Shown here: one piece after another, positions 2,026-55,134 of the stretch
Numbering within the stretch: position 1 is the stretch's first letter
How the letters are laid out: the number at the start of each line of letters is the position of its first letter
Source: Limisphaerales bacterium
GTDB lineage: Bacteria > Verrucomicrobiota > Verrucomicrobiia > Limisphaerales > JACDHS01
DNA length: 64,000 nt
Reading direction: 5' to 3'
NCBI GenBank assembly: GCA_046597605.1
Contig: JBKJKE010000008.1
Coordinates: 15,284-79,283 of the forward strand
Made by a program: the position numbers and the translations under genes
The notes under the pieces: generated by a model
Databases searched by the model: none
Told to the model about the DNA's origin: nothing
What the model saw: only the letters and a program-made list of their open reading frames with translations

Positions 2026-2047
2026 GCTATCACGTTGACCTTTCCAG

Positions 2048-14659: not shown

Positions 14660-14975
14660 GGTCGATTCTTTGTGAAGTAAACCCCACAATGCGCGTATTA
14701 CGCTATCGATTCGTTTCGAAGTGACCCCACAATACGGGTATTACGGTGTCGAATCGTTTCGAAGTGACCCCACAATACGGGTATTGCGGTATCGATTCAT
14801 TTCAAAGTGATCCCACAATACGGGTATTGCGGTATCGAATCGTTTCAAAGTGACCCCACAATACGAGTATTGTGGTATCGAATCGTTTCGAAGGGACCCC
14901 ACAATATGGGTATTGCGGTATTGAATCGTTTCGATGTGACCCCACAATACGCAGAGTACCGGGGTTGATTCACCC
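14660..14975. repeat. Tandem array 2: 7 copies of a 43-bp double-hairpin unit
   Basis: CCCACAAT anchors at 14683, 14726, 14769, 14812, 14855, 14898 and 14941, exactly 43 bp apart. Unit palindrome CCACAATAC-GR-GTATTGYGG (perfect at 14856-14875), plus TCGAA-TCGT-TTCGA. Confidence 0.95.
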
Positions 14976-28907: not shown

Positions 28908-30374
28908 TCAACTGCTTTTTTGTTTCGAGCGGAGTTGTTGGATCAGAGACATCTTGAACTGATGCAATCCGTCTTCCAGGCCAACCACGTATTCTTCAGG
29001 AACCTTCAACCGCTTCACCGCTGAGGGTAGTTTCTGGATCTGCTGTTGGGCATGCTCCCGAAGGACCGGGAGTGCGGAGGACTGATAGACCAACTTTCCG
29101 GATCGAAAAATTGGGACCAGTAGATCTTCATGCTCCAAAGAGTTTGGCATCGTTCTCGAAGGGAATGCACCAGAGGTTGGAACAATAGTCCACTGCGACG
29201 GCGGGGTGCTCGCCGAATCATAGATGGCATCGCCGCAAAACTCGCCGTTCCTGTAAAAACGCCGTACCTGCTGAATTCCTGGAGTCGACATCTTGATCGG
29301 TTGTTCGGAGAGCTTGATTTTGTATTGCCAATTGCCTCCCGGTTGGCGAATCGCTGCGAGCTTGTAGACACCGCCCAACGCAGGTTGATCAAAAGCCGTA
29401 ACCATATTCGTCCCAACTCCCCACACCCCAATCGTCGCACCGCGTTGCTTCAGTTCCTGAATGCCGTATTCATCCAGGTCGTTGCTCGCGATGATGAACG
29501 CTTGGGGAAAACCACCTTCATCCAGGATCTTGCGTGATTCGACGCTTAGTTTGGCGAGATCGCCGGAATCGAGACGGATGCCGTTCATCTCGAAGCCGCG
29601 TTCGCGCAGGCGCTTACCCGCCGTCACTGCGTTGCGAACTCCTTGCAAAGTGTCGTAAGTATCGACGAGGAACACGCAGTTGTTCGGCATCGCATCCGCA
29701 TACTTCTCGAATGCCTCCAGTTCGCTATCAAAAGACATCACCCAGCTGTGGGCATGAGTGCCTTTAACGGGAATACCGAAGAGTTTGCCAGCGAGGACAT
29801 TGGATGTCGCAGTGCAGCCGCCGATGAACGCAGCGCGACTGGCGCTGAGCGAACCGTCAACACCTTGAGCGCGGCGAAGGCCGAACTCTATGACCGGGTC
29901 ACCATCAGCTGCTGAACAAACGCGAGCTGCTTTCGTGGCGATCAATGTTTGAAAATTGATCAGGTTCAATAAGGCGGTCTCCACGATTTGTGCCTCTATA
30001 ATAGGACCTCGCACCCGGAGCAATGGTTCGCCGGGAAAAACTGCCGTGCCTTCTGGAATAGCATCTACATCACAACTGAACTTAAGCTCTTGCAGATACT
30101 TTATAAAAGCGGGCTCGAACAATGGCTCACCATCATTCCCATTTAGTCCGGATAAATAGGCCGCATCCCGATCGTCGAATCGGAGGTTCTCGAGGTAACC
30201 GATGGCGGCTTCCAGGCCTGCAGCGATGCTGAAACCGCCTTGAAATGGATTTTTCCGAAAATGCAGGTGAAACACCGCTTCGGTTGTCGCCGCCCCCGAA
30301 CGCCAGTAGCCGTAGGCCATGGTGAGTTGGTAGAGATCCGTCAGCAAAGAATAGTTGGGGGGTTGCGTCTGCAT
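28908..30374 (-). CDS. pncB: Nicotinate phosphoribosyltransferase
   Basis: [46 protein letters not shown] motifs. Length fits the family at 488 aa. Confidence 0.9.
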
Positions 30375-30465
30375 AGCGGTCGACGCGTATTGCTAAACGA
30401 TCCCGGCAAGCTGGCAAACATTTTTCGAGAAGATATCCCTCACCGCTGAGCTGGGAGATGACGAC

Positions 30466-30920
30466 CGCGACACCAGAGCGCGCTACAAGTCGTTGCAGGT
30501 CCCGAGGAGCACATGAAACCTGCGTTACAGGCCGCTGCGGATCCCGCGAGCACATGAAACCTGCGTTTCCGGTCGCTGCGGATCCCGCGAGCACATGAAA
30601 CCTGCGTTACAGGTCGCTGCGGATCCCGCGAGCACGTGAAACCTGCGTTACAGGTCGCTGCGGATCCCGCGAGCACGTGAAACCTGCGTTACAGGCCGCT
30701 GCGGATCCCGCGAGCACATGAAACCTGCGTTTCAGGCCGTTGCGGGTCCCGCGAGCACATGAAACCTGCGTTTCAGGCCGCTGCGGATCCCGCGAGCACG
30801 TGAAACCTGCGTTTCAGGCCGCTGCGGATCCCGCGAGCACGTGAAACCTGCGTTTCAGGCCGTTGCGGATCCCGCGAGCACGTGAAAACCTGCGTTTCAG
30901 GTCGTTGCGCGCGGGGAAAT
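30466..30920. repeat. Tandem array 3: about 11 copies of a 41-bp hairpin unit
   Basis: GAGCAC anchors at 30507, 30548, 30589, 30630, 30671, 30712, 30753, 30794, 30835 and 30876, exactly 41 bp apart. Unit GAGCAC(A/G)TGAAACCTGCGTT(A/T)CAGG(C/T)CG(C/T)TGCGGATCCCGC with hairpin TGAAAC-CTGC-GTTTCA (for example 30719-30734) and GCGG-ATC-CCGC. Confidence 0.97.
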
Positions 30921-31081
30921 GAACTGTAACACGCGTCACAGGTGCTCCTTGAGAAGGCATCTGAACATTTTTTACGGTGCAAACCGATGGGGGAATTGTA
31001 ACCTGTTCCCTTGCTTTTCCCGTCTTGAGAGAATGCGGTTGGTTTCGAACCAACCCGGGAATCAGTCGATTAATTGCTGAA

Positions 31082-34000
31082 ATGAATTTGCTCCAACTCG
31101 CCATGCGTCGTCCGTTGACGATCGTGGTCCTGATCATCGCCCTCTGCCTTGGGGCCTGGATGGGTCTCAAGAAGATGTCGCAGGACATTTTTCCGCCACT
31201 TGGTATTCCGACAATCTATGTGGCACAGCCCTACGGCGGTATGGACCCGGCCCAGATGGAAGGCTATCTCACCTATTTCTACGAGTATCACTTTCTTTAC
31301 ATCACAGGAATCGAGCATGTCGAATCCAAGTCCATCCAAGGCGCTTCGATTATGAAGCTGCAGTTTCATCCGGGCACGGACATGTCGCAGGCGCTTTCCG
31401 AAGTAATCGGCTATGTAAACCGCTCCCGCGCCATGATGCCGCCTGGAACGGTATCGCCTTTCGTGACAAGATTTGATGCAGGAAGTGTGCCCGTGGGTTA
31501 CCTCACCTTCTCCACGACGAACGAAAATCGCACGGTCGGTCAGATGCAGGATGCGGCTTTGAATTTGGTTCGTCCATTGTTCGCGACCCTACCCGGGGTT
31601 TCAGCGCCACCTCCATTCGGTGGCAGCGCTCGAACGATTCTTATCAACGTTAAGCCAGATCGGATGCGTGCTTATAACATGTCCCCTGACGAAATCGTTG
31701 CAGCCGTCTCGCAAGCCAACATGATCAGTCCCTCGGGGAACATGAATCTGGGTGATAAATATCCGATCGTGCCGGTGAACGGCATCGTGAAGAATATCAA
31801 GGACCTGGAATCGGTGGCGTTGAGAACGAGCGCTAATGGTGCCGTGTTTTTGCGTGACGTCGCCACGATTGACGATGGCGCAGATATCGTCAGCAGCTAC
31901 GGTCTCGTGAATGGACGGCGCACGGTTTATATCCCGGTCACTAAACGTTCCGACGCTTCCACCTTGTCCGTCGTAAACCTCGTTAAGGAAAACCTCCCGA
32001 AGTTCCAAAGCGTAGTGCCGGACGATGTGAAGGTGAGCTATGAATTCGATCAATCGCCAGTGGTGATTCGAGCGATCAAAGATCTGGCAAAGGAAGGTCT
32101 GCTGGGAGCGATTTTGACCGGCATCATGGTGCTCCTGTTTTTGCGCGATTGGCGTAGTGCATTAATTGTCGTGCTGAACATCCCGATTTCGGTGGCAGCG
32201 GCGGTCTTCGCTCTCTGGATAACTGGGCAAAACATTCACCTCATGACGCTGGGCGGGCTTGCGCTGGCAATTGGAATTTTAGTCGATGAAGCGACTGTCA
32301 CGATCGAGAACATCCATACGCATCTTGCGCGCGGCACCGGCGTTTCTCGCGCCGCCTTTGATGCAACAAATGAAACGGCTGGCCCACGGTTGCTGGCTAT
32401 GTTGTGTATTCTCGCGGTATTCATTCCGGCTTTTTTCATGACTGGTGCTGCCAAGGCGCTATTCGTTCCACTGGCGTTGGCGGTCGGATTCGCGATGATC
32501 GCTTCCTATTTCCTATCGAGCACACTGGTTCCAGTGCTCGCGGTGTGGGTCGTGCGCAAGCATGCGCAGAAGGAATTGGCGCACGCGAAGAAGAGCCGTT
32601 CCGCATTTGAAAAATTCCAGGAAAGTTACGGTCGTTTTGTCCGAAGCCTTGTTTCGGTGAATTGGTTGGTATTCGGTATTTATCTCCTTATAGCAGGACT
32701 GATCGTCTGGATGGTGGGTACGAAGCTCGGCCTCGATATTTTTCCAAAAACGGACTCAGGCCAACTCGCATTGCGACTCAAAGCACCGGTCGGAACGAAA
32801 GTGGAACTTACGGAGAAGCTTGCGCTTCAAGTGCTGGACATCATCAAGCGCGAAGCTGGACCGGAAAAGGTAGCGCTGACGATGGGATTGGTAGGTGTTC
32901 ACGCGCCCAATTATCCAGTGAACTTGATTCATCTGTGGAATGGTGGCCCAGAGGAAGCCTGGCTGGCGGTGCAGCTCGTCGCCGGTTCTGATATTAAAAT
33001 CGAAAGTTTTAAAGAAAAGCTTCGCGAGGTGTTTGTTCGCGAATTGCCCGAGGTCCGCTTTTCGTTTGAGCCGAGCGACATCGTAAACCGCGTCATGAGC
33101 TTTGGGGCGAGCACTCCGATCGAAGTGGCAGTGAGCGGGCCTAACCTTGTCGTGAACAAAGAACACGCCGACAAACTTTACGAGAAGTTGAAAGCGATTC
33201 CATCACTGAGAGATGTGCAGTTCGGGCAATCGCTGGATTTCCCAACCGTCGAGGTGAACATTAATCGCGAGCGAGCTGGTCTGCTGGGAGTCAAAGTTGG
33301 TGACATCACCCGGTCACTGGTCGCTGCTACGACGTCGAGCCGTTTTACCGTCGCGAATTACTGGGCCGACCCGAACTCCGGAGTGAGCTACAATTTGCAG
33401 GTTCAAATTCCCCAGACAAAAACATCCTCCCTCGAAGACTTGCAGAATGTGCCTGTGGCGAGTCGTGACGGGCAGTCGGTATTGTTGCGCAGTGTGGCGA
33501 ACGTTACCCAGGGGACCGCAGTGGGCCAGTACGAACGCTATAACATGGCGCGGGTGGTTAGCATCACCGCTAACATTCACGGCTCGGATCTTGGCAGTGT
33601 TGCGAAAGAAATCAGCAAAGTGATCGCCGAAGTGGGAGCTCCTCCTGCCAAAACGAATGTCGCTGTGCGTGGCCAAACGGTTCCATTGAAAGAACTCCTG
33701 AGCAGTTTTCAAAGCGGGCTGATCATGTCAGTCATTGTCATTTTTCTTTTGCTCAGTGCCAATTTTCAATCGTTGCGATTGTCATTCGTGGTGGTTTCCG
33801 CTGTTCCTGCGGTGATCGGGGGAGTTGTGCTCGCGTTGTGGTTCACAGATACGAGCCTGAACATTCAATCGGCAATGGGCGCGATCATGGCCATCGGTGT
33901 AGCAGTGGCGAATGCGATTCTCCTTGTCACGTTTGCAGAGCGGAGTCGCATTGATGGGATGATTGCGAGCGATGCCGCGGTGGAAGGTGCGCGCAGCCGA

Positions 34001-34279
34001 CTGCGGCCGATTCTGATGACCAGTTGTGCGATGATCGCGGGAATGATGCCGCTCGCTTTCGGAATGGGCGAAGGCAGCGATCAAACTGCGCCGCTTGGCC
34101 GGGCAGTGGTTGGTGGCCTGGTGGGCGCAACGCTGGCGACACTTTTCGTATTGCCTGCGGTGTTCTCTATTTTACGCCGTAAATCCAGCACGAGTTCACG
34201 ATCGCTCGATCCCAATGATCCCTTGAGCGGGCATTACACTTCCCAACTCCGTGCCGAACCTCTTGAGAAAGTTTCATGA
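31082..34279 (+). CDS. RND-family efflux transporter, inner-membrane permease (AcrB/CzcA superfamily)
   Basis: MNLLQLAMRRPLTIVVLIIA. About 1065 aa with a 12-TM RND layout and two large periplasmic loops. Motifs LGGLALAIGILVDEATV and AIGVAVANAILLV. The track GTG start at 30977 would run into the repeat array. Confidence 0.92.
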   Translation: MNLLQLAMRRPLTIVVLIIALCLGAWMGLKKMSQDIFPPLGIPTIYVAQPYGGMDPAQMEGYLTYFYEYHFLYITGIEHVESKSIQGASIMKLQFHPGTDMSQALSEVIGYVNRSRAMMPPGTVSPFVTRFDAGSVPVGYLTFSTTNENRTVGQMQDAALNLVRPLFATLPGVSAPPPFGGSARTILINVKPDRMRAYNMSPDEIVAAVSQANMISPSGNMNLGDKYPIVPVNGIVKNIKDLESVALRTSANGAVFLRDVATIDDGADIVSSYGLVNGRRTVYIPVTKRSDASTLSVVNLVKENLPKFQSVVPDDVKVSYEFDQSPVVIRAIKDLAKEGLLGAILTGIMVLLFLRDWRSALIVVLNIPISVAAAVFALWITGQNIHLMTLGGLALAIGILVDEATVTIENIHTHLARGTGVSRAAFDATNETAGPRLLAMLCILAVFIPAFFMTGAAKALFVPLALAVGFAMIASYFLSSTLVPVLAVWVVRKHAQKELAHAKKSRSAFEKFQESYGRFVRSLVSVNWLVFGIYLLIAGLIVWMVGTKLGLDIFPKTDSGQLALRLKAPVGTKVELTEKLALQVLDIIKREAGPEKVALTMGLVGVHAPNYPVNLIHLWNGGPEEAWLAVQLVAGSDIKIESFKEKLREVFVRELPEVRFSFEPSDIVNRVMSFGASTPIEVAVSGPNLVVNKEHADKLYEKLKAIPSLRDVQFGQSLDFPTVEVNINRERAGLLGVKVGDITRSLVAATTSSRFTVANYWADPNSGVSYNLQVQIPQTKTSSLEDLQNVPVASRDGQSVLLRSVANVTQGTAVGQYERYNMARVVSITANIHGSDLGSVAKEISKVIAEVGAPPAKTNVAVRGQTVPLKELLSSFQSGLIMSVIVIFLLLSANFQSLRLSFVVVSAVPAVIGGVVLALWFTDTSLNIQSAMGAIMAIGVAVANAILLVTFAERSRIDGMIASDAAVEGARSRLRPILMTSCAMIAGMMPLAFGMGEGSDQTAPLGRAVVGGLVGATLATLFVLPAVFSILRRKSSTSSRSLDPNDPLSGHYTSQLRAEPLEKVS

Positions 34280-35376
34280 TAAATAAATTTCGTTCACTCC
34301 AAATGAAATCATTCCTGGTCAGTGTGGGTGTGGCTATCGCCGCAACCCATCTCTCCAGCTGTAAACCCGCGGCAGAAGTTGTGGTTGAGAAGAAACCTGA
34401 AGTGCCTGTGTCGGTGAAACTGGTTCATGCTAAACGCGGCGATATCATCCGATCGGTATCCCTGCCGGCAAACATGACAGCCAACCAACAAGTGACCCTT
34501 TATTCCAAAGTGGGTGGCTACCTCAAACAGATCGGTGTGGATCGCGGTGATGAGGTGAACAAAGGAGATTTGATTGCGGAGATCGAAGTGCCCGAGATGC
34601 TCGCGGAACTCGCGCGCAACAAAGCGGAGCTAAAAATTGCGGAGTTGGACCAAAAGCGAATTGCCGACGCACAGAAGAAAGCCCCTGACCTGATTGTGTT
34701 GCAAAGCATCGACACCGCGACCGCGAAGGTCGAAATGGCACGGGCGAACCTCGACCGGATCGAAACTTTACTCAGCTTCTGCAAAATAACGGCGCCTTTC
34801 TCAGGAGTGGTGACCCGGCGCATGGTGGATATTGGCGCTTTCGTCCCAGCCGCTACTTCCGGGAGCGCCGCGCAGAACGCGGCGATCGTGACTATCTCGG
34901 ATTTCAGCACAGTCCGCGTGATGATCTCCGTGCCTGAATTGGAGGCACCTCTCATCAAGAAAGGTCTTCCAGTCAAAGTCAGTGTCGAAGGTTTGCCCGG
35001 TCAGGTTTTTGAAGGAAGCGTCACCCGCTATGCCCACACCCTGGATGATGCGACCAAGACGATGGTTGTCGAAGTGGACCTGCCGAATCCGAAACGGGAA
35101 CTGCGTCCGGGGATGTTTGTGACCGCCCGCATTGGGGTGGAAAAGCGAACCGATCGCGTGCTGCTCCCGGTCGAAGCGGTCATGATCGAGAAATCGGGCC
35201 CTTCAATTTTTACCGTGGCCGATAAGAAAGCTAAAAAGACGGCAGTTAAAATCGGCTTCAACGATGGAGCGAATATTGAGATCGTAGAAGGAGTGCAGGC
35301 GGGTGACCCCATTGTTGCCGTTGGAAAATTACCATTGGCTAATGGGCAGGCGGTCGTGATTGCTGACGCGAAATGA
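34276..35376 (+). CDS. RND efflux periplasmic adaptor (membrane fusion protein, HlyD family)
   Basis: Lipoprotein-like signal (..IAATHLSSC). Lipoyl/hairpin/beta-barrel order (GDLIAEIEVPE..ITAPFSGVVTRR..MISVPE..GMFVTARI). ATGA overlap with the RND stop. Confidence 0.9.
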   Translation: MINKFRSLQMKSFLVSVGVAIAATHLSSCKPAAEVVVEKKPEVPVSVKLVHAKRGDIIRSVSLPANMTANQQVTLYSKVGGYLKQIGVDRGDEVNKGDLIAEIEVPEMLAELARNKAELKIAELDQKRIADAQKKAPDLIVLQSIDTATAKVEMARANLDRIETLLSFCKITAPFSGVVTRRMVDIGAFVPAATSGSAAQNAAIVTISDFSTVRVMISVPELEAPLIKKGLPVKVSVEGLPGQVFEGSVTRYAHTLDDATKTMVVEVDLPNPKRELRPGMFVTARIGVEKRTDRVLLPVEAVMIEKSGPSIFTVADKKAKKTAVKIGFNDGANIEIVEGVQAGDPIVAVGKLPLANGQAVVIADAK

Positions 35377-36731
35377 GAACTCGTTTAGGATTAATTGGGT
35401 TGCTGGGATGCGCCGTTTTAGCCGGTGTTGCAGTGTCGGCGCAAGATTCGGCACCTCCCGCTCAGAAAACGGAACTGCCAAAACGCGGAGACGCCTGCAT
35501 TGTGGATCTTCCCACGGTGCTCCGGCTGGCCCATGCACAAAATCTGGATGTGCAGATAGCCCGAGAAAGACTCGCCGAGGCAAAAGCGAATCGCACCAGT
35601 GCCACCTGGCAATTCTTTCCCTACATTTCTCCCGGCATCTCCTATCGTAAACACGAAGGTCGCGTGCAGTCGGTCGAGGGCGACGTGTTTGACGCGAGCA
35701 AAGGGTCCTACACTCCCGGCGTAACGCTGGGCATGCAGGTCGATCTCGGTGAAGCCTACTATCGTGAGCTCGCTGCCAGGCAGCAGGTGGAAGGGGCTGA
35801 CCAAGGAATTGCCGCTCAACAAAGCACGAGTGCTCTCGTTGCAGCACAGAGTTATTTCGATCTGTTATTTGCCCAGGCTGCGGCCGATGTCGCACGCGAT
35901 GCATTGCGGATCTCAACGAACTACCAGGATCAGGCGGAACAAGCGGTGGATGCCGGCGTTGCTTTCCGTGGAGACGCGTTGAGGGTCAAAGTACAGGCAC
36001 AACGCAATCGTCTGGCCATCGAGCAAGCGGAACAACAGCGCAAGCTGGCATCCGCTCGTCTGGTGGAAGTCTTGCACCTCGAACCCGGAATGGAGCTCGT
36101 TCCCGAGAACGATGAAATTGTCCCGCTCGCCCTGGTTGATACAAACGCTGCACTTAAATCGTTGGTTCAGCAGGCGCTGGCGAACAGAGCAGAATTAAAA
36201 CAAAGTGGAGCCTCAGCAAACGCCGCTCGCCTTGCAGCGAAGGGCGCAATCTACGGTCCCATGGTTCCGACCATCGGCGCACAGGTTTTCGCGGGAGGCC
36301 TGGGCGGAGGCACGGGCGGCGACCTTGGCAATTTCGGGGATCAACAGGATTATGTTGTGGGCTTGAGCTGGCGGATCGGTCCCGGTGGTATGTTCGATAC
36401 CGGTCGCACGAAGGCAACAGAGTCTCGAGCGAAGTCGTCGGAGCTTTTAACTGAGAAGCTGCAGGCTGACATTGCTCGTCAGGTGATCGAAGCAGCCGTC
36501 AAAGCGCAATCGTTACGGCGTCAGATCGACATTGCCCATGGCGCTCTCCAATCGGCAGACGACGGCCTGAAGCTCGCCCAAATGCGACGCGAATTCGCGG
36601 TTGGTGTAGTGCTGGAAAATATCCAGGCGGAACAAGACTTGACCCGTGCCCGCCTCGATTATCTTAGCGCGATTGCTGATTACAATAAAGCGCAGTACCA
36701 GTTGAAGCATGCAATTGGCCAGGGTCTTTAA
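35373..36731 (+). CDS. TolC-family outer-membrane efflux protein
   Basis: Signal peptide, then two repeated helical/beta TolC-like halves (..LRLAHAQNLDVQIARERLAEA.. and ..ALANRAELKQS..). ATGA overlap with the adaptor stop. Confidence 0.88.
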   Translation: MRTRLGLIGLLGCAVLAGVAVSAQDSAPPAQKTELPKRGDACIVDLPTVLRLAHAQNLDVQIARERLAEAKANRTSATWQFFPYISPGISYRKHEGRVQSVEGDVFDASKGSYTPGVTLGMQVDLGEAYYRELAARQQVEGADQGIAAQQSTSALVAAQSYFDLLFAQAAADVARDALRISTNYQDQAEQAVDAGVAFRGDALRVKVQAQRNRLAIEQAEQQRKLASARLVEVLHLEPGMELVPENDEIVPLALVDTNAALKSLVQQALANRAELKQSGASANAARLAAKGAIYGPMVPTIGAQVFAGGLGGGTGGDLGNFGDQQDYVVGLSWRIGPGGMFDTGRTKATESRAKSSELLTEKLQADIARQVIEAAVKAQSLRRQIDIAHGALQSADDGLKLAQMRREFAVGVVLENIQAEQDLTRARLDYLSAIADYNKAQYQLKHAIGQGL

Positions 36732-38665: not shown

Positions 38666-39640
38666 GTGAGTGATGATGTGCGCGACGGTGAAGTTCAAGA
38701 CGAGTGGATTGCCAGTTTCCTACAGCACCTTGCCACAGATCGCGGCGCCTCGATTTTTACCCAGCGCAATTACCGCGAGGCTCTCACTGAGTTTTTCTGT
38801 TTTTACCGAGAGGAGCGGAAGACCTCTCCTGATTGGAAAACCTTACAACGCGACGATTTCCGGGCCTATCTTCGTTTTCTGGGTCGCGGCGGGCGGAGTC
38901 GCGCTTCCATCCAACTTCGATTTAGCGCGTTCCGTACATTTTACAAGTTCATGATCCGGCGCGGACATGTGGTTTCAACGCCGATTAAAAACATCCTGCT
39001 TCCGAAACCGGAGAGGCGGTTGCCGAAATTCCTGACCGCAGATCAAATGCTGGCGCTTCTGCATGCTCCTTTGAAGAAGTATGAAGAACTTAGCAAAGTC
39101 GCCCAGGAAAAGAGCGGCAGAAAAATCGACTCTGCTCCCTACTATCGTGATGTGGCTATCCTGGAAACCATTTACTCCTGCGGATTGCGTATCAGTGAAC
39201 TCTGCGGCCTGCTGGCAGAGGATATCGACTGGAGCGAATACTCTGTGCGCGTGCGCGGAAAGGGAAAGAAAGAGCGGGTCGTTCCCATTGGAGAACCTGC
39301 CATGAAATCCATTCAAGTTTACTGGCAAAAATTGCCTGCATTTCCCAAGGGAGAAGCGCCTGCGTTTTATGCTGATTTCGAAAAGGCCGCACCCGTTTAC
39401 CCTCGATCGATTCAACAAAATTTGAAGACCTACCTCGAACAGGCGGGCCTGGACCCGGGGCTGACCCCGCACAAGTTGCGTCACAGTTATGCTACCCACC
39501 TTCTCAATGCTGGAGCGGACTTGCGCAGTGTGCAGGAGTTATTGGGCCACGCCCATCTGGTCACGACGCAGATTTATACACATGTCACGATCGATAGACT
39601 GAAGCAGGCTTATGAAGGCGCGCATCCGCGAGCGAAATAA
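38666..39640 (+). CDS. Tyrosine recombinase, XerC/XerD type
   Basis: N-terminal SAM-like core-binding domain (FLQHLATDRGASIFTQRNYREAL). Catalytic residues in context: GLRISEL, GKGKKERVVP, HKLRHSYATHLL, LLGHAHLVTTQIYTHV. Confidence 0.9.
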   Translation: MSDDVRDGEVQDEWIASFLQHLATDRGASIFTQRNYREALTEFFCFYREERKTSPDWKTLQRDDFRAYLRFLGRGGRSRASIQLRFSAFRTFYKFMIRRGHVVSTPIKNILLPKPERRLPKFLTADQMLALLHAPLKKYEELSKVAQEKSGRKIDSAPYYRDVAILETIYSCGLRISELCGLLAEDIDWSEYSVRVRGKGKKERVVPIGEPAMKSIQVYWQKLPAFPKGEAPAFYADFEKAAPVYPRSIQQNLKTYLEQAGLDPGLTPHKLRHSYATHLLNAGADLRSVQELLGHAHLVTTQIYTHVTIDRLKQAYEGAHPRAK

Positions 39641-39689: not shown

Positions 39690-39772
<83 letters not shown>

Positions 39773-40153
39773 AATCTTCAATAGAATCAGGGGCTTTACT
39801 GCTGTTTGATCAGCTCAAAAAGCATTGAAATAAATCTGCAAAAAGATCTGTCTGTCCGAGTTTTGTCCGGTTTTTAGGCTTTTGGGAGGCGGGGGGGGTG
39901 GGTTTTCAAATTCTCTTTCTCAGCTAATGGAAACCGGGGGTGGACCAGCCGATTCACATTAAATAAGCGTCTCAAAGAATGTTTCTTTGCAGTCCATGGC
40001 CAAATTCCAGTTGACACCAAACGGCTAAACCTCGTTAGCAGCAGCCAATTCCAACGATTACGACTATCTGGCAAAGAATGAGTTTCGCCTCAAAAACAGA
40101 TCAATCGGTGAAACGTCCCAAATAGCTCGTTTTTACCCTATAGGTCTCTACTA

Positions 40154-41197
40154 ATGGCTGGCACCCGCGCATCCGCGCGTCTTCTTACAATGAAAGATAA
40201 AATCGGAAAAACCAAAGCAGCTCCAAAAAAATGGGTGACGATCACAGAAAAAGATGTTTTCGAACACTTAGAACCCGAGCAGCGAAAAGAGGTTCGCCGT
40301 AAGTTGCACGTCCTGAAGACGCGAAAAACTAAAAATGCGGAGGAACGAGAGTTCCTTGCTCAGGATGACGCTCGAAAATGGAACGAATACTATTCGAAAT
40401 CCCGCGAGCTTTATGATGAGAAGGCTTTCTTTGCTGCGATGCAGACCATCCACCAAACCATGAAACACGCGGAATGGTTTGCTGCGAACACACCCTATCC
40501 TTTTGCCAAAAACTATCACTCTCCTATTCTGAGCCTCGCTAGTGTTTCATGTAGATACTTGCGCAAATTGGCCACCCTGGGGAACGAGCACGCCATCCGA
40601 GAAATCGGCCAAATTGCCGTTGCAGTGTGTGAAACGTTGGACGAGCTAATCTGCAAGGATTCCAAGAATGCTGAGGGAAACGCAGAGAAGATGAGTTACT
40701 CAGCAGCACAACTTCCTTATTGGCCGATGCTCCACTTCAAGCACACAGCCGGAAACAATCATTTTCCCCGAGTAGCAGAGCGATTACGCCTTGGAAGCAG
40801 TTGTTATATTAATGTATCCGAAACCGCAAATTACAGCCTGCAAACGCCCATAAATGCATTTGTTTGGCAGTGCCTGAGGGAGTTTCAAGATTTTCACCAA
40901 AGAATCTACTGGGCGCAACGTCATCAAGAATCGTTGGATGGCGCATTGGCAAATTATGGATGTTCACAGGAAGAAATCGAAATTTACAGGAAGAGCTTCC
41001 AATTGCCTCCTCTCACCAAGTCCAATTCCCTGAGCTGGGCTGATACAGCCCTGATGCCTTACATTAGATTGAAGTTCCCGAGTTTGCTGGATGTCCCCGC
41101 CTTCACGGGAATTAACACCGGACCAAACGGTCGCCGCTACGCACCTGCCCGAAAAGCAGTGATTCAGGCTCTTAAATCGCTAGCGCGGTCAGAGTAG
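40154..41197 (+). CDS. Hypothetical protein (island cargo)
   Basis: 347-aa ORF with a Lys-rich N-terminus and no motif I can name. The start may be ATG 40190 (MKDKIGKTK). Confidence 0.55.
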   Translation: MAGTRASARLLTMKDKIGKTKAAPKKWVTITEKDVFEHLEPEQRKEVRRKLHVLKTRKTKNAEEREFLAQDDARKWNEYYSKSRELYDEKAFFAAMQTIHQTMKHAEWFAANTPYPFAKNYHSPILSLASVSCRYLRKLATLGNEHAIREIGQIAVAVCETLDELICKDSKNAEGNAEKMSYSAAQLPYWPMLHFKHTAGNNHFPRVAERLRLGSSCYINVSETANYSLQTPINAFVWQCLREFQDFHQRIYWAQRHQESLDGALANYGCSQEEIEIYRKSFQLPPLTKSNSLSWADTALMPYIRLKFPSLLDVPAFTGINTGPNGRRYAPARKAVIQALKSLARSE

Positions 41198-41425
41198 CCT
41201 AAGCATGGGCTGGGTTAACCTACGGCATAGCTGACAGATTCTCCTACCGGAGCGAATCCGATATTCGGATCGGATGAAAAAGAAAAAAGCGAAGCCTCAA
41301 AATGTCAAAAATCGGAAGCGGAAGAAATCGCGACGCAAGCGACAGGCAACTTGGAAGAAGATTTTGCTGAATGCGGCCGTCGTTGGACTAAAATGGCTAC
41401 TGGATCGACACGATGGGCGAATTTC

Positions 41426-41704
41426 CTAAACCGCTGAATTGCCCTTGAAGAAGGCTTTCATAGTCTCTTTCGCCTGCTCTCCTTGCGGCAATAACGTTTC
41501 TACAGGCACTCGGAGAGAGTGGGCCAGGCAGAGAAGCTCGCAGTCGGCAACCCATCGAATTTGAGTTTCGATTTTGGCTAGTGTTTCACGGCTCAGATCC
41601 CAGCCCAGCAAATGGCACCTCGCTGCGAGCATCGGTTGGGTTAAACCGTGTTGCTCTCTCAGTTGTTTTATCCGAGGCCCAACTATGTTTCGCGGCCGGG
41701 TCAT
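41426..41704 (-). CDS. XRE-family helix-turn-helix transcriptional regulator
   Basis: IKQLREQHGLTQPMLAARCHLLGWDLSRETLAKIETQIRWVADCELLCLAHSLRVPVETLL is a typical Cro/C1-type HTH. Divergent from the 41778 gene. Confidence 0.8.
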   Translation of the reverse strand: MTRPRNIVGPRIKQLREQHGLTQPMLAARCHLLGWDLSRETLAKIETQIRWVADCELLCLAHSLRVPVETLLPQGEQAKETMKAFFKGNSAV

Positions 41705-41777
41705 AGTTCCGAATTCAGAACTTGACCGTACATGCGATTGGCCGTGCTATGGTTCGGAATTCAGAACGGCCAGACTT

Positions 41778-43025
41778 ATGAATGCCCCATATCTAAAATG
41801 TCACTGCTTCCACTGTGGCGGCGGAATTGAATTTAACGCGAGCGATGTTGGAGCATGTGTCGAGTGTCCACATTGCCAGCAAGAAACGTCACTTAAAAAT
41901 CCGCCCGTTGAAAAGTCCGAAAAGCCTATGCTCTGGAAAGTCATCTCCTTATGCATGCTTGTCGCGATAATTGTTGGTTTTCTTGGAATGCCATTGCTTC
42001 GAAAGGATGCAAAAAACGGGGGAGCCAAAAGTTCCGCTGCTGTTTACCAAGCTGCGCGAGTTTCGGGACAGGTCTTTATTGTCCAACAGAATCGTGAAAC
42101 GGTGAAAATGAGCATGGTAGCGGTGCAAGTGGTCAATACCAGAACTGCAAACGCACGACTGGCAGAGAGGCGGATACAGGCGCGAGACAATTTGACTAAA
42201 TTGGAAGCGCAACAAGCGAAAATCAATTTGAAGCTGCCTTACCTGCAGAAGCTTCAGCCCCTGCTTCGAACAAGCGCGAGCCAAAAAGAGCGACTCGCGC
42301 AGCAAGCAATAGAACTGATCCGAATCTACCAAAACGGCGCGACCAGCACGGAGATTCCTGAGTTCTACCGTAAGGATTATAGAACGAAGCTTACAGGGGC
42401 GCAGGCTTCTTATAGTCGCGCCAAATCCGAGTATCAGGCGGCGGTAGCCCAATCAGACAAAACAGATTCAGAATTGGAGCGGTTGGAATCTGAATTAAAA
42501 GATGTGGAAGCGAGAATCAGCTACTGGAGCAGCCCTGCAATCTACTTTGACACAGCCTGGCCCAACGTGATTGCGGAGACAACTACAGACGCTGACGGCA
42601 AGTTTATGCTCGAACTACCGAGCGAGGGAGAATTTACCATCACGGCACACACGTCTCGTCTGACAACAGACGGTAAAGAATCTTTTGGATGGCTTGTTCC
42701 TGTTCGGGCCGGCAGCGGAGACATCCTGCTCAACAACAATAATTTGGCCGTCTTGCCACCAGAAAATCCGGATGAACTAATTGCAAATGCAACGACCGGG
42801 AACAGTGATGCACAATTTCGCTTGGCAGTTCTGCATCTCACAGGAAACGGCGCGCTACAAGACTCGATTGAAGCATACAAATGGCTTACCATTGCCGCGA
42901 CAGGCGGAAACGCTTTGGCCGAAGGATTGCGCAACGATGTGTCTCAAACTTTGAATCAAAGCGAGCAAAACGAGGGCAAGAGGAGAGCCTTGGCCTTCAT
43001 GAATGCAAAGGCTCCGCCACTGTAG
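41778..43025 (+). CDS. Membrane-anchored zinc-ribbon / coiled-coil / beta-sandwich / Sel1-repeat protein (island cargo)
   Basis: ATG 41778 (the track start 41574 overlaps the XRE gene). CFHCGGGIEF-x10-CPHC ribbon. TM helix WKVISLCMLVAIIVGFLGMPLL. Long coiled coil. DADGKFMLELPSEGEFTITAH beta-sandwich motif. C-terminal Sel1-like AQFRLAVLHLTGNGALQDSIEAYKWLTIAATGG. Confidence 0.7.
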   Translation: MNAPYLKCHCFHCGGGIEFNASDVGACVECPHCQQETSLKNPPVEKSEKPMLWKVISLCMLVAIIVGFLGMPLLRKDAKNGGAKSSAAVYQAARVSGQVFIVQQNRETVKMSMVAVQVVNTRTANARLAERRIQARDNLTKLEAQQAKINLKLPYLQKLQPLLRTSASQKERLAQQAIELIRIYQNGATSTEIPEFYRKDYRTKLTGAQASYSRAKSEYQAAVAQSDKTDSELERLESELKDVEARISYWSSPAIYFDTAWPNVIAETTTDADGKFMLELPSEGEFTITAHTSRLTTDGKESFGWLVPVRAGSGDILLNNNNLAVLPPENPDELIANATTGNSDAQFRLAVLHLTGNGALQDSIEAYKWLTIAATGGNALAEGLRNDVSQTLNQSEQNEGKRRALAFMNAKAPPL

Positions 43026-43033
43026 AGAGCGAG

Positions 43034-43855
43034 TCAGTCAGTAAGATAGGCTTCGTTCTTTTCTGCACGTTTACTGGGTTCACAGAACCGTAGCACTGCG
43101 AAATTACACTCCTGAATTCGATCAACAATACGATCTCCAAGGGCCTCTTTAAGTTTTTCTTCTGGTAGGTTGCTGGTCAAAATTGTCGGCAGCCTGTTCG
43201 CGTATCGTTCGTTAAGAATATCGTAGATCAAAGGTTCTTCATCCCGCCCCCCCACACTGACCCCGACTTCATCTACGGCCAGCAGCGAAGTTCTCATGCA
43301 GCGTTCGCGCATATCTTCTGCCCGCTGGTCCCGGTACGTTGCGCGGTGTTTAGCAAGTAACTGGCTTTGAGTTAAGAACAGCCCTTTGCCGTGCAGTTGC
43401 AGTATTGCCGATGCAATGTGAGTCTTGCCGGTCCCTTTGTCTCCGAGCAGGAGCAAAAATCCTTTAGGTTTAGCTGCGTATGCGCGGCAGTGGTGGAGGT
43501 TGAGGTTACAAGTAGGGTTACAATACCGGAGCTGATCCAGAGTGGCGCCCACATACTTGGCCTGGATCCCACGATCTCTCCAATAAATGACTAATGCATG
43601 CCGCTTTCTTTCACCTTCGCAGATCTGGCACGGCAAGTAATACGATTGAAACACCTTCGCCTGCCAGTTTTCGCGAGTGGTCTTTTCAAAATCTATGCCC
43701 GATTGTGTTTGATGCGTGGGGCACTTCGCCGATTGCGGTTGCTCAGCTAGCCACTTTTGCAAGTCCGTCTCAAATTGTAGTTGTCGTTCACGCATGAGGC
43801 GAAATCTTTCCTCAATGCCTTCTATCGTTCGATTGATTGGTTCCGTTGCACTCAT
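43034..43855 (-). CDS. DnaC/IstB-like AAA+ ATPase (replication helper)
   Basis: Walker A LLLLGDKGTGKTH, Walker B LLAVDEVG, sensor TILTSN. N-terminal Cys-containing region. Confidence 0.8.
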   Translation of the reverse strand: MSATEPINRTIEGIEERFRLMRERQLQFETDLQKWLAEQPQSAKCPTHQTQSGIDFEKTTRENWQAKVFQSYYLPCQICEGERKRHALVIYWRDRGIQAKYVGATLDQLRYCNPTCNLNLHHCRAYAAKPKGFLLLLGDKGTGKTHIASAILQLHGKGLFLTQSQLLAKHRATYRDQRAEDMRERCMRTSLLAVDEVGVSVGGRDEEPLIYDILNERYANRLPTILTSNLPEEKLKEALGDRIVDRIQECNFAVLRFCEPSKRAEKNEAYLTD

Positions 43856-43856
43856 A

Positions 43857-44363
43857 TTAAAATTTTTTGTAAGCAGGAACAGCCTGCTTCTTAGGAGCTA
43901 ATTCATTTATTTGTTCTGAATTTCTTCTTATGTCGGTCACGTCCCCTGTATTCGCTGGTGACGGAACGATTGGACTCATTGGCTTAGCGTTCGGACTTGG
44001 TGACGTAACCGCGAGAAGGGTATAGTTACTCGGCGCTCTCAGATTGGGCGTCGACACTCGAATCAGTTCAATTTCCTCTAAAATTTTCAGGCGTCGCTGA
44101 ACTGTCTTGATCGATACTCCGCTGTTTTGCGCGATGTAGCTGTGCGTGGTTTGAAAGACCTCTGATTCCTTGTTGGAAGCTATTTCGCAAAGTGCGAGGT
44201 AAACTGCCAGCGCCGAAGAAATTGCGTTATCACGGTCGAACGCCTCACGAATTTTGCGAAGTGCGCGCTTGTCCATCCAACACCAAGCAACACCATTTCC
44301 CTTCTTGAGTTCTCGATGCTGCTGGAATGGGCGTCCTGATGGATTTGAGCAATCTTCGATCAC
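43857..44363 (-). CDS. Winged-helix DNA-binding protein, probable replication initiator of the element
   Basis: ALAVYLALCEIASNKESEVFQTTHSYIAQNSGVSIKTVQRRLKILEEIELIRV. Its stop is 1 nt from the DnaC-like start. Confidence 0.55.
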   Translation of the reverse strand: MIEDCSNPSGRPFQQHRELKKGNGVAWCWMDKRALRKIREAFDRDNAISSALAVYLALCEIASNKESEVFQTTHSYIAQNSGVSIKTVQRRLKILEEIELIRVSTPNLRAPSNYTLLAVTSPSPNAKPMSPIVPSPANTGDVTDIRRNSEQINELAPKKQAVPAYKKF

Positions 44364-44422
44364 AAGGGGTTCCTGTCGGGAAAAGGGCTACAATGAGCGC
44401 AGCGGATTCGTGCATCAGCCGA

Positions 44423-44614
44423 TTAACTTTCTAGCGCGAGAACGTCTTCCAACCGATAACGCAGTAGCCGACCGTTGAATCGGATTGGCTTTAGGTCCGT
44501 TCGCCGTGCGATTGTGTGAATGCAAACGTTCCACCTTTCAGCCACTTGTTTGCGGGTAAGCAGTTTGGAGTATTCGGGGAGACTAGCGGGTTCGTTTTGT
44601 AATGTTCGTTTCAT
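44423..44614 (-). CDS. Excisionase/AlpA-type helix-turn-helix protein
   Basis: LLTRKQVAERWNVCIHTIARRTDLKPIRFNGRLLRYRLEDVLALE resembles the Xis/MerR-type HTH_17 pattern. ATG 44614 is preferred over the track start 44683. Confidence 0.65.
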   Translation of the reverse strand: MKRTLQNEPASLPEYSKLLTRKQVAERWNVCIHTIARRTDLKPIRFNGRLLRYRLEDVLALES

Positions 44615-44716
44615 AACTTTTGCAAACAGCGCGGTCGTGCGCTGAATTGCACAGAATGAACACGAAATGTTCGTTACCCTCACTGGGGAGAATGTTGCGG
44701 TAGTTTATCACCCCAC

Positions 44717-45535
44717 CTATCGCTTTGCCTTCGTGACAGCCGAGAGTGGCTGTTCTGCTTTCGGCAGAAACGGGAATAGCTCGTAAAAGTCCTGCGCGGC
44801 CTCTACTCTTCTCGCGTATAGCTCACGTTCTTGCGAGTCTTGGGTGTCTTTACCCTTAGCCCTCTCTTTCGGTCCAAACCGATGCCAAGCAACAGGAAAG
44901 CATTCCTTCATGTCCGCTAGGAGGGAATGATGTAACAAACGCATGATTGCCAAGTTATCCAATTTGCGAAGCCAACTGGTTGCCTTTGTACGTCCCGTCC
45001 GCTTTCTGAACCCGATTTTATCTGGCCGATTGTCGGCGACCCACTTTTTGAATGAATCTACGATTTCTGCATCCGTGTAAAAGGCCCAATCAATTTCAAC
45101 TGCGGCTCGTTCCCGACCTGACTCGCAATCAATGCCCGTTCGTTCGTCTCCCCGACTGATTATTTCCTGTTTCATTCGGCCAGTATCCGCAGATACAAAA
45201 GCCGGAAGTCGAAATGCTCCCGCCGAAAGCGATTGGAAATCGTTGCAGACATGTTCCCGCCATTTTGGGTTTAGGTCTTGCCAGGCGTACGAAAATAACT
45301 TTGAACCGGTGACGGCGGGCCACACAAGAGGGCTCGGCAAAGATAGCAACACGCCATTGACCCTCGCGGCGTAATGAAATCCTTTCGGAAGAAACGGGGC
45401 CTGCGCCTCGCCTTCATAATGCGCGATGATAGAAGGCGACTCCCGCGCATACTCATAAATGCAACAAGCGATAATCTCCCTCTCGGTTGCTTTTGCCAAC
45501 GGCTGAAAATCCCAATCATGCTTCGAAATGCTCAT
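44717..45535 (-). CDS. Hypothetical protein (island)
   Basis: 272-aa ORF whose start overlaps the integrase stop by 4 nt. No recognisable motif. Confidence 0.55.
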   Translation of the reverse strand: MSISKHDWDFQPLAKATEREIIACCIYEYARESPSIIAHYEGEAQAPFLPKGFHYAARVNGVLLSLPSPLVWPAVTGSKLFSYAWQDLNPKWREHVCNDFQSLSAGAFRLPAFVSADTGRMKQEIISRGDERTGIDCESGRERAAVEIDWAFYTDAEIVDSFKKWVADNRPDKIGFRKRTGRTKATSWLRKLDNLAIMRLLHHSLLADMKECFPVAWHRFGPKERAKGKDTQDSQERELYARRVEAAQDFYELFPFLPKAEQPLSAVTKAKR

Positions 45536-46938
45536 GCCGCTTCATTGGCTGCGTTTTCCGTTTTTGGTTGCTCCTGCATCAAATTGGAGATCGCTAGGAA
45601 TGTTGGTTTCTTTTTGTCTATGTAGAACTCGCGGGTGAGATTGATGGAGCTATGACGCAACGCGACGCTTGCGGCGTAAATTCCGGCCTGGGCGCAAATC
45701 TGCGATCCAAACTCTTTTCTGAGTGCGTGAAGCGCATTTCGCGCGGTCAAACCTTTTCCCCGCAACCATTGAACCGCTTCATTAAACAAACGATTGCATC
45801 GGTAATGATGGTTTCGGGTGCTTCCGGCCTTCGGTTGGACATCAGATCGAATGACAAACGGAGAACCGTGCCCCGGTTTCGGCATGTATGTTTTGAGTAT
45901 CTGCAACAACCCCGGGTCAACGTCAATGTCAGCTTCGGATTCAGCAGACTTGGTGCTGCCATGCTCTGTGGTCTCTACTCGGATGGCATGTCTCTGCCAC
46001 TGAATCTGCCTCCATTGCAACTTGTCGATTTCATTCCGTCTCAACCCTGCCCCCAGAGCCAAAAGCACGATCTTGAACAGTTCCGGACGTGGCTCACCAA
46101 TCTTACCCTCGCCTAAGTGTCCTTCCTCCAATTCTCGTTTCGCGGACATCAGTATGAGGGCAGGTTCAATTTCCGATTTGTAGCGCGATTTGCCAGCGTC
46201 TGGAAGTGCCACGCCTTCGAGCGGCAAGGGGGATGGCAGACGCACTGTTAGGTGCTTCCGGATGGCCGGAGTAAAGAGTGCCTTGCTCGAAAGGAGTATG
46301 CTGCGGATTGTAACGCCGGTTCGTTTGAGTTGTAGCGGGTTTTTGCTAGCTGCTTTCAACTCGCAAATTTTCCAGTCATTGATTTTTTCCGGAGTCAGCT
46401 TGTCCAAACGAACGGAGCAAACTTTGTCGAGCCACTGTTTGTAGCCGCCATTGACGTAATCGTGCTTGGCCTTTCCCCCTTCGATCTTGAAGGCTCCTGC
46501 AACAAGCGAGCGAAATTTCTTTGCGTAAATCTCATACGTAACGGGCTTCAAGCCACTAACCGCCTTCACTTGGTCCAAGAACTCGCCAACTGTGCAACCA
46601 TCCTTTGCTACTTCCATCCCAGGTTTGTATTTGGCGAGGGTATGCGTCCAGCCTTGGGTAATCAGATTCAGATAAATGTCTTTGGCCTTCACCGCCGCAT
46701 CGGCCTTGTTCGCTGTATCCAGGTTGAACCATGCCTCTTTTCCCAAATGGGTGATTCGAACCTGCCACGTTGGAATTACAACCGTTTCGCCATCGCGGGA
46801 TTGGTAAGAGCGTTTCTTAAGTCGAGCCTGCCAGTAGTCCTGATGGGTTTTGGGCAAGCGAGTCACCTTCGCTGTCCGCGACTGTCCGCCTTCTGTCCGT
46901 TTCTGGCTGTCCTGAGTTGTCATAAACTGTTCTTTCAA
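45532..46938 (-). CDS. int: Tyrosine-type site-specific integrase
   Basis: Catalytic-domain residues in context: GAGLRRNEI (Arg), HALRKEFGS (His-x-x-Arg), LRHSSINLTREFY (His...Tyr). Located about 95 bp from attR. Confidence 0.9.
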   Translation of the reverse strand: MKEQFMTTQDSQKRTEGGQSRTAKVTRLPKTHQDYWQARLKKRSYQSRDGETVVIPTWQVRITHLGKEAWFNLDTANKADAAVKAKDIYLNLITQGWTHTLAKYKPGMEVAKDGCTVGEFLDQVKAVSGLKPVTYEIYAKKFRSLVAGAFKIEGGKAKHDYVNGGYKQWLDKVCSVRLDKLTPEKINDWKICELKAASKNPLQLKRTGVTIRSILLSSKALFTPAIRKHLTVRLPSPLPLEGVALPDAGKSRYKSEIEPALILMSAKRELEEGHLGEGKIGEPRPELFKIVLLALGAGLRRNEIDKLQWRQIQWQRHAIRVETTEHGSTKSAESEADIDVDPGLLQILKTYMPKPGHGSPFVIRSDVQPKAGSTRNHHYRCNRLFNEAVQWLRGKGLTARNALHALRKEFGSQICAQAGIYAASVALRHSSINLTREFYIDKKKPTFLAISNLMQEQPKTENAANEAA

Positions 46939-47032
46939 TATTCCACCGCGAGGCCGTCAGTATTGGTTAAATACGCATTCCTACTGAACAGAAGTGAATT
47001 GTGAAGAAAAGTTGAGAACGGTCAAGAGAAGA

Positions 47033-47085
47033 ACTGAAAATCCTTGTGTCCCCGGTTCGATTCCGGGTCCTGCCACCACTTTCAG
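47033..47085 (+). repeat. attR: duplicated tRNA-Phe 3' half
   Basis: Same 53-mer as 39720-39772. No 5' tRNA half precedes it, so it is a remnant target duplication and not a second tRNA. Confidence 0.9.
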
Positions 47086-47293
47086 CCAAGCCCGCAAACG
47101 GTTTCCATACTTTGACTAAGTCCGGTCCCGCCGCTCGTTAGCCCTATTTTGTGCGATGTGAATACTGGTATCTCCTGTGCCTGACTATGCTTCCGCTCCA
47201 GAGACCTTGGTTTAAATCTCAACGAACGGCGGTGATGAAGCGTCCAGAAGAACTTAACCGCCTTTAAAATTTCGACGATTGGGGATCAAGACT

Positions 47294-49838: not shown

Positions 49839-49919
49839 TGTTTATTCTTTATGGCCACCCCTGAGGGCAAGGAAACAAAGAACGCGCTTCCTTCGCCCGA
49901 CCCAGCTCGCTGGCACGTG

Positions 49920-55130: not shown

Positions 55131-55134
55131 ACAA

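Follow-up and report, generated by a model that had tools for sequence, protein, structure and literature searches.

Array 3 is a run of 41-bp units between the gene of a nicotinate phosphoribosyltransferase (pncB) and a resistance-nodulation-division (RND) efflux operon of a Limisphaerales bacterium. It lies on a stretch of 64,000 nucleotides (assembly GCA_046597605.1, contig JBKJKE010000008.1, positions 15,284 to 79,283), which is called the window throughout. The array is real, non-coding and dyad-bearing, and it carries signs of growth in place. We read it as an extragenic palindromic minisatellite that resembles repetitive extragenic palindromes (REPs) and bacterial interspersed mosaic elements (BIMEs), lacks their tag, has grown in place and is near-neutral or selfish DNA in a permissive stretch; a probability of about one half is given to this reading. 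Array 3 is one of four arrays in the window, numbered in their order, and these represent a lineage-specific class with a period of about 42 bp, typical of Limisphaerales-like Verrucomicrobia. An earlier description of the array, made from the letters of the window, is referred to as the original prediction.

Structure of array 3

Tandem Repeats Finder (TRF) located array 3 at 30507-30909 with a period of 41 bp, 9.8 copies, 95% matches, 0% indels and a score of 671. The motif GAGCAC starts every 41 bp from 30507 to 30876, ten times in all, as the original prediction had stated, and the repeat search of the array gave a spacing of 41 throughout. When the unit core was required twice, the pattern matched the window 11 times, compared with 0.00 for 100 shuffles. 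The earlier count of about eleven near-perfect units holds for the ten units from 30507; the unit at 30466 is only a degenerate copy in the same register (Table 1). All nine full units are distinct from each other, with the variation confined to columns 7, 21, 23, 26, 29 and 35. The whole units are arranged head-to-tail and are followed by one inverted partial unit, the only solo copy of this unit type, that faces the array end. With 22 of 24 identical positions it is nearer to the first of two unit subtypes of array 4 (array 4a) than to the units of array 3. Stop codons are present in all six frames and the longest open stretch has at most 74 codons, thus the array is non-coding.

Each unit carries two dyads half a period apart, dyad 1 with the 16-bp sequence TGAAAC-CTGC-GTTWCA and dyad 2 with GCGG-ATC-CCGC. 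Both are found in every full unit as described before, but the 6-bp stem TGAAAC/GTTTCA, taken to be perfect in each unit, is so only in units 6 to 9. The right arm is GTTACA, with an A.A mismatch, in units 1, 3, 4 and 5 and GTTTCC in unit 2; in unit 10 a single A is inserted. Over 18 units from arrays 3 and 4 and the solo copy, standard pairs occupied 81% of the dyad 1 cells, versus 16-45% with a slid partner, and formed 6-7 pairs around a 4-nt loop. One of these pairs is switched from A-U to U-A (6 versus 6 units, 6 intermediates). Folding of the individual units as single-stranded DNA yielded -5 to -9 kcal/mol with z-scores of -0.7 to -2.2. The designation as hairpin units is thus correct with respect to the dyads, but the hairpins are modest and in about half of the array 3 units imperfect.

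The Pfam assignments confirmed pncB and the RND efflux operon as the divergent neighbours. An almost complete filling of the space between them, as initially described, was not found: the array occupies 410 bp of the 710-bp intergenic space (58%), or 482 bp (68%) together with the degenerate and the inverted end unit. Free flanks of 91 bp next to pncB and 137-168 bp before the efflux operon leave room enough on both sides for promoters, which the original prediction expected in or next to the array.

Array 3 in an independent assembly

The deposited contig of 88 kb was compared with an independent short-read assembly of the same sample (Logan, run SRR31159418). The exact pncB protein, the short-chain dehydrogenase/reductase (SDR) protein downstream of array 2, the membrane-fusion protein of the efflux operon and two other window proteins are also present on Logan contigs. 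Three Logan contigs begin or end inside arrays 2, 3 and 4. Contig _16146 extends from inside array 2 (window position ~14777) to the first unit of array 3 (30543), and contig _27443 begins at 30833; its copy of the last two array 3 units and of the inverted unit agrees with the window throughout. Contig _10053 stops at the right edge of array 4. Among the Logan contigs, L095 carries the tenth unit and the inverted unit, and L083 opens with the four units that end array 2. Array 1, which is more diverged, is spanned by contig _17875 with the same 5.9 copies; it reads identically in L084. The base-for-base match of the first and the last two units of array 3 confirmed that its borders and end units are real. 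The internal copy number is that of the deposited contig alone; a collapse of units is less likely because all nine full units differ.

Signs of growth in place

The order of units points to the way in which the arrays have grown. In array 4 the two subtypes alternate as a-b-a-b, with 1-3 differences between units at lag 2 versus 9-10 at lag 1. In array 3, the similarity of neighbouring units exceeds that of a shuffled order (763 of 20,000 permutations, p~0.04), and both edges of the array are degenerate. The array of a related organism, L096 (Table 1), has a higher-order repeat of three units. Such higher-order repeats, alike neighbours and degenerate edges argue for a duplication in place and against a serial insertion.

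Related arrays and the conserved period

All four arrays of the window were recovered by TRF, and the class was extended to relatives of the organism; their earlier assignment to one family is maintained for arrays 3 and 4 only, which are alike in sequence. Circular alignment of the consensus units, compared with shuffles, gave a score of 42 for array 3 versus array 4a, the 95% value of the null being 17. The two consensus units share 28 of 41 positions, two fewer than the 30 of 41 counted by hand before. In the same comparison, arrays 1 and 2 were unrelated to arrays 3 and 4 and to each other. All four have in common a period of 41-43 bp and their content of dyads. A comparison of the 250-bp flanks revealed nothing shared beyond chance 9-13-mers; common flanking or terminal modules were not present, and inverted repeats of >=12 nt were absent from 30380-31000. 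In 81 kb of this genome, the unit type of arrays 3 and 4 is represented by two arrays and the solo copy, arrays 1 and 2 by one locus each, and no other 13-mer family occurred in at least three copies. In array 1, the stems are 76% identical versus 60% for the non-stem positions, and one pair occurs as T-A, G-C and A-T with G.T intermediates. The gene contexts differ: arrays 1 and 2 each have co-directional genes on their two sides, the genes around array 3 are divergent, and the surroundings of array 4 are degraded and contain IS630-like fragments as well as a truncated gene of an extracytoplasmic function (ECF) sigma factor.

Contigs of relatives were selected blind to repeats by means of a metallophosphoesterase encoded just left of the window (69-75% identity). 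Three of five related organisms had one array within 7-17 kb (L096, L098 and L100). Their unit sequences show no relation to the window arrays beyond chance, once multiple tests are considered. A homology between array 1 and L098 on the basis of the common dyad TGTCG..CGACA was rejected; the same dyad is present 17 times in 1.3 Mb of unrelated DNA. The L096 array is located between convergent genes and ends with an inverted partial unit (~1668-1690); a Logan contig of the same organism (L097) stops exactly at the array start. An open reading frame (ORF) of 182 amino acids, called across the L100 array and without a Pfam family, is probably spurious. The organism is represented by a metagenome-assembled genome (MAG) of Limisphaerales-like Verrucomicrobia. 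Its SDR protein clusters at >=90% with one of a 'Limisphaerales bacterium' MAG; the fabG-acpP-fabF region of that MAG has a DNA identity of 79%.

A census under a single TRF setting (score >=40, period >=20, >=2 copies) revealed periods of 41, 41, 42 and 43 bp in 81 kb of this genome and of 40, 41, 42 and 282 bp in 63 kb of the relatives. In 1.31 Mb from 89 other loci of many phyla, 41 arrays with periods of 20-471 bp were detected, only one of them in the range of 40-43 bp. Thus 7 of 8 arrays in the lineage have a period of 40-43 bp versus 1 of 41 elsewhere (p=7e-7). The window was picked for its arrays and is a biased sample; among the relatives, which were not so picked, 3 of 4 arrays fall in this range. 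A period of 41-43 bp corresponds to 3.9-4.1 helical turns. Two unrelated genomes, a Pirellulales MAG (L026:3754-3914) and a Thermoanaerobaculia MAG (L039:11465-11570), each have a short tandem array whose hairpin unit measures 33 bp, such as GGGGGC-TGAC-GCCCCC close to a CGTC; head-to-tail hairpin arrays therefore occur sporadically elsewhere with other periods.

Searches for known families and further copies

No described type of repeat fits array 3, in agreement with the original prediction. At gathering thresholds, Rfam identified only a tRNA in the whole window, and the region 30380-31090 was without a match even at E<=10. An exact-pattern scan for the core of arrays 3 and 4 in tandem, with a pattern that works on the window, had zero matches in 185,579 species genomes, the JGI metagenomes and IMG/VR. 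A looser pattern for array 1 gave nine isolated chance matches and zero arrays in the metagenomes. Blastn searches against 72,556 plasmids and a phage collection yielded no match to the array. A covariance model built from the units of arrays 3 and 4 detected no further copy in the window, its extensions and 13 Verrucomicrobia loci (260 kb). Among 5.8 billion proteins, the flanking genes had no close orthologues, the nearest pncB being 69% identical, and the kinase adjoining array 1 had only domain-level relatives. Eighty pncB loci from GTDB genomes of many phyla served as background only.

The original prediction had proposed a search for a REP-associated tyrosine transposase (RAYT); domains of RAYT, Y1 or HUH transposases were absent from the scanned window proteins and from the Pfam-annotated gene calls of the window extensions. 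The Pfam and NCBIfam scans of the window proteins tested showed no Cas domains. No ParA/ParB or repressor gene is situated beside any of the arrays.

A proposed REP-like minisatellite

REP sequences and BIMEs remain the nearest analogue, as was initially suggested. Array 3 shares with them the extragenic location, the short imperfect palindromes, the regular spacing and the inverted partner at its end, which L096 also has and which resembles the inverted REP pairs of REPINs and BIMEs. REPs are imperfect palindromes of 20-40 bp that can fold into a stem-loop. REP clusters are at times reiterated in tandem, and REPs are present in Verrucomicrobia (PMC3733652, PMC2817692), including REP-rich members such as Opitutus terrae (PMC3733652). 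The alternating orientation of BIME units had been named as a distinction. This contrast turned out to be weaker, because several units of the lineage are palindromes over the whole length, with 16/20 pairs in array 4a, 15/20 in L098, 16-18.5/21 in L100 and 14/20 in L096. Dyad axes therefore recur every ~21 bp, and the arrays are readable as ~21-bp half-units in alternating orientation, as in BIMEs. The array 3 units are in head-to-tail order, and for them the whole-unit symmetry (12/20 pairs, p=0.18) was not significant.

By analogy, a REP-like palindromic element may have been amplified head-to-tail on site, either by replication slippage or by unequal exchange between units. The locus of array 3 would offer a permissive stretch between two divergent promoters, and the arrays are probably selfish or near-neutral DNA. 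That arrays occur in every gene context speaks against a function bound to specific neighbours. An influence on pncB or the efflux operon, if there is one, would be generic, as for REPs and BIMEs: hairpins in transcripts could stall exonucleases or polymerases, and dyads or cruciforms in the DNA could bind architectural proteins or gyrase and might absorb negative supercoils between the divergent genes.

The array also resembles minisatellites or variable number tandem repeats (VNTR) such as the mycobacterial interspersed repetitive units (MIRU), which are intergenic, have units of tens of bp, evolve by slippage or unequal exchange and show degenerate edges and higher-order repeats. However, minisatellites have no common unit length, as seen in the range of 20-471 bp in 1.3 Mb of other genomes, and they are not built of dyads. 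An intergenic hairpin module of ~45 bp in variable tandem number is known from the BOX elements of Streptococcus pneumoniae (boxA-boxB(n)-boxC) and the NIMEs of Neisseria. BOX elements are capped by boxA and boxC and NIME units are split by dRS3, whereas the four arrays of the window have no shared flanks.

Several observations weigh against a REP-like minisatellite. Head-to-tail dimers of REPs are rare, and REP families are defined by a GTAG or CGTC tag (PMC3733652). None of GTAG, CTAC, CGTC or GACG is conserved beside dyad 1 in arrays 3 and 4, where the position after dyad 1 is CGCT, CGTT or CGTC depending on the unit and the conserved tag is GAGCAC. A RAYT or Y1 transposase was not seen among the scanned window proteins. 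Nearly all copies are head-to-tail with one solo copy in 81 kb, in contrast to the hundreds of dispersed singletons and inverted pairs of REPs, whose singletons and dimers number from tens to thousands per genome. The hairpins are only moderately stable, and the mismatches indicate no consistent strand: G.T exceeded A.C mismatches in array 1 (10 versus 6), array 2 exhibited the opposite trend. The arrays differ in unit sequence but keep a unit length of 41-43 bp, and simple slippage leaves the period of 40-43 bp in 7 of 8 sequence-unrelated lineage arrays unexplained. Without a GTAG/CGTC tag and with no RAYT seen, array 3 is not filed as a member of a REP family.

If the arrays are only REP-like minisatellites, they explain breaks of short-read assemblies at intergenic sites in these Verrucomicrobia and offer good loci for strain typing (VNTR). 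In that case the catalogue of extragenic palindromes also gains a head-to-tail variant without a tag, from a phylum barely studied for such elements. The fixed period of ~42 bp, not predicted by slippage, suggests a geometry-reading protein, as SopB on sopC, or a new mechanism of repeat generation; either would, if true, be new genome biology in an uncultured lineage.

Alternative explanations

The arrays may be platforms on which a dimeric protein loads cooperatively along the same side of the helix; the dyad axes are spaced by about 21 bp, i.e., two turns. We consider this unlikely, and it still is the best placed of the alternatives. Such a platform may be a sopC-like centromere, an operator or decoy array, or a nucleoid-organising site. 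Dyad 1 can be written as a 16-bp TGWAAC-N4-GTTWCA with 5-bp half-sites separated by a 6-bp gap. Operators of the CRP/FNR type have the same half-sites and gap. The switch from A-T to T-A is symmetric in both half-sites, and the dyads symmetric over the whole unit (array 4a, L098, L100) include loops too short for hairpins. The period of 3.9-4.1 turns is conserved, the sequence is not. Size and layout are almost those of sopC of plasmid F, where SopB binds a 16-bp inverted repeat in each of 12 direct 43-bp repeats (PMC3177203); the arrays of the window have 6-10 direct copies of 41-43 bp with one 16-bp dyad per unit. Unlike sopC, they are chromosomal, several are present per 64 kb, and their sequences are mutually unrelated. 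The neighbours are pncB, the RND pump, kinases and fabG, with no sopA/sopB-like genes nearby, and the plasmid collection held no blastn match. At least three unrelated unit sequences in one 64-kb window would demand several proteins or a reader of shape only. Further points against a protein platform are the missing ParA/ParB or repressor genes beside the arrays, the mismatches in 4 of 10 array 3 dyads, the position of array 4 in decayed DNA, and a drift of ~0.1 turn per unit, by which the sites would run out of phase over ten units.

A broader proposal, rather improbable in our estimate, is an undescribed lineage-wide system that is set by geometry, with units of 41-43 bp or four turns, dyad axes at each half period, and a machinery that measures length or shape. 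This machinery may be a structure-reading protein for DNA binding or segregation, or an enzyme that makes copies of unit length. The proposal follows from the period of 40-43 bp in 7 of 8 lineage arrays despite unrelated sequences, versus 1 of 41, and from the persistence of dyads at 60-70% identity.

An action as RNA is also improbable, a little more so than a system set by geometry. The array, once transcribed, might serve the efflux operon or pncB as a structured 5' leader, form a small RNA or sponge with multiple hairpins, or be cut into unit-length RNAs. Two hairpins are predicted per unit, and some covariation is visible in the three Watson-Crick types at one pair of array 1 and in the A-U/U-A switch of arrays 3 and 4. 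The diverged units of L100 each still fold as a long hairpin, with arms that match slightly better within a unit than between units (p~0.05). However, RNAs of two units had fold z-scores of only -0.4 to -3.9, and Rfam was without a match. A sigma-70-like site was not found inside array 3, and the only terminator-like match at the array was the inverted end unit on the minus strand, at a rate equal to the shuffle expectation. G.U wobbles favour, in arrays 1 and 2, the strand that runs antisense to the genes on either side. The presence of arrays in every gene context, including a pseudogene region, and the lack of polarity in overall-palindromic units are also against an RNA.

Slightly less probable again, the units may be miniature mobile elements similar to IS200/IS605 or REPINs, moved as single strands by a HUH/Y1 enzyme that inserts them serially at their own end sequence and sets their length. 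This would fit the uniform unit length despite different sequences, the tag GAGCAC, conserved in front of an imperfect palindrome in the solo copy as well as in arrays 3 and 4, and the two palindromes per unit, which recall left- and right-end hairpins. The unit type is common to two loci 24 kb apart, and the inverted solo copy beside array 3 resembles an array 4 unit. On the other side, the edges of the arrays decay gradually without a sharp end, the higher-order repeats point to block duplication, and unrelated unit sequences would need several enzymes; no Y1/HUH transposase was present among the proteins and gene calls scanned, and the 81 kb contain a single solo copy.

An assembly artefact or a mis-called CRISPR is very improbable: k-mer assemblies break at the arrays and the internal copy number of array 3 comes from one deposited contig, but its borders and end units, four array 2 units and array 1 in full length were reproduced independently and the nine full units are all distinct, and although CRISPR repeats are likewise regularly spaced, partly palindromic and of similar size, here the whole 41-bp period is 95% conserved without unique spacers and no cas domain was detected in any scanned protein, as the original prediction had recognized for the spacers.

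Features of the window and of related contigs

Table 1. Arrays, units and neighbouring genes; positions refer to the window unless a related contig is named.
Feature	Position	Strand	Period	Characteristics
Array 3 with end units	30466-30947		41 bp	
Degenerate leading unit of array 3	30466-30506	+		in register; ~14 of the last 20 positions as consensus (alignment)
Nine full units of array 3	30507-30875	+	41 bp	consensus GAGCACATGAAACCTGCGTTTCAGGCCGCTGCGGATCCCGC; TRF, register listing, spacing 41
Tenth and last unit of array 3	30876-30916	+		1-nt insertion (A), GTGAAAAC, diverged 3' third
Inverted partial unit behind array 3	30924-30947	-		GAGCACCTGTGACGCGTGTTACAG; blastn-short, pattern search with 2 mismatches, covariance-model match of 41.7 bits
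Array 1	7604-7905 (TRF 7618-7868)		42/43 bp	~7 units, ~70% identity; dyads GTTTYA..TGAAAY, TGTCG..CGACA
Array 2	14663-14963 (TRF 14681-14951)		43 bp	~7 units, 89% identity; dyads TCGAA-TCGT-TTCGA, CCACAATAC-GG-GTATTGCGG
Array 4	54901-55146 (TRF 54901-55129)	+	41 bp	six units, two alternating subtypes; better as 82 bp (TRF row, 94% match)
pncB (nicotinate phosphoribosyltransferase), left neighbour	28908-30374	-		Pfam NAPRTase_N, NAPRTase_C, NAPRTase; transcribed away from array 3
RND efflux operon, right neighbour	31085-36731	+		Pfam ACR_tran, HlyD_D23, OEP
AcrB-type pump	ATG 31085 or 31103, to 34279	+		Pfam ACR_tran
Membrane-fusion protein	34276-35376	+		Pfam HlyD_D23
Outer-membrane factor	35373-36731	+		Pfam OEP
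Array of L096, 'Verrucomicrobiales bacterium' MAG GCA_028293445.1	1412-1664		41 bp x 6.2	unit TTTCTTTCGTCGGTTTTGGAACCAAAAACGTCGTCAGAACT; 123-bp (3x41) higher-order row
Array of L098	451-545		40/41 bp x 2.3	dyads TTTCCC-CG-GGAAA, TGTCCGG-TCC-CGGACA
Array of L100, ENA metagenome contig	~1931-2275		42 bp x 8.3	60% matches; every unit still a long hairpin, -9 to -31 kcal/mol

The start of the RND pump is ambiguous. A protein from 31085 is absent from the public protein collection, and the Logan gene call begins at 31103 (1058 aa). Upstream of the gene, the sequence TGTAAC-N18-CGTC at 30997-31024 resembles a promoter of ECF sigma factors with a spacer 1-2 nt longer than usual, and is followed by a hairpin GGTTGG-TTTCGAA-CCAACC at 31037-31055 just before the start codon. 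As judged from these motifs, the efflux operon may have its real promoter and leader here, outside array 3. Within the arrays, the TGAAAC/TGTAAC motifs were rejected as -35 elements of ECF promoters, with CGT located 13 nt downstream and not 16-17. A sigma-54 reading was likewise rejected; the GG-N10-GC spacing is present only in some array 4 units. These are the units after a type-b unit, which at 54983-54997 and 55065-55079 read CGGCAC-N5-ACGC; the spacing is absent from array 3 and in array 4 probably coincidental.

Array 4 lies between the short ORF fragments 54391-54633 and 55130-55249 (minus strand), which are C- and N-terminal-like and had a weak Pfam match (HTH_Tnp_Tc3_2, E=0.03); we take them to be the ends of an IS630-type transposase. 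The ECF sigma gene close to the array (55262-55576, minus strand) is truncated after region 2. Because of the transposase-like fragments and this truncated gene beside it, array 4 is placed in decayed DNA. Two small proteins (50982-51485 and 53932-54402) have a cyclic-nucleotide-binding domain as their sole domain and lack the DNA-binding one of CRP/FNR regulators; one of them is encoded ~500 bp upstream of array 4.

On L098, the contig end TAGTCTGTCGGCCCGACAGACTAC (11117-11146), read on the minus strand, has the form of a REP-like palindrome with a GTAG tag; a further array or a REP may be located there.

A tRNA gene (39690-39762) is located beside a XerC/D-like recombinase (38666-39640), which was rejected as an integron integrase; a Logan contig also breaks inside the tRNA. 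The ~12 kb after the tRNA (40000-52000) have a G+C content of 48-50% versus 53-55%, and encode a second integrase (45532-46938), an IstB/DnaA-like ATPase and a helix-turn-helix protein. This low-G+C stretch is probably an integrated element.

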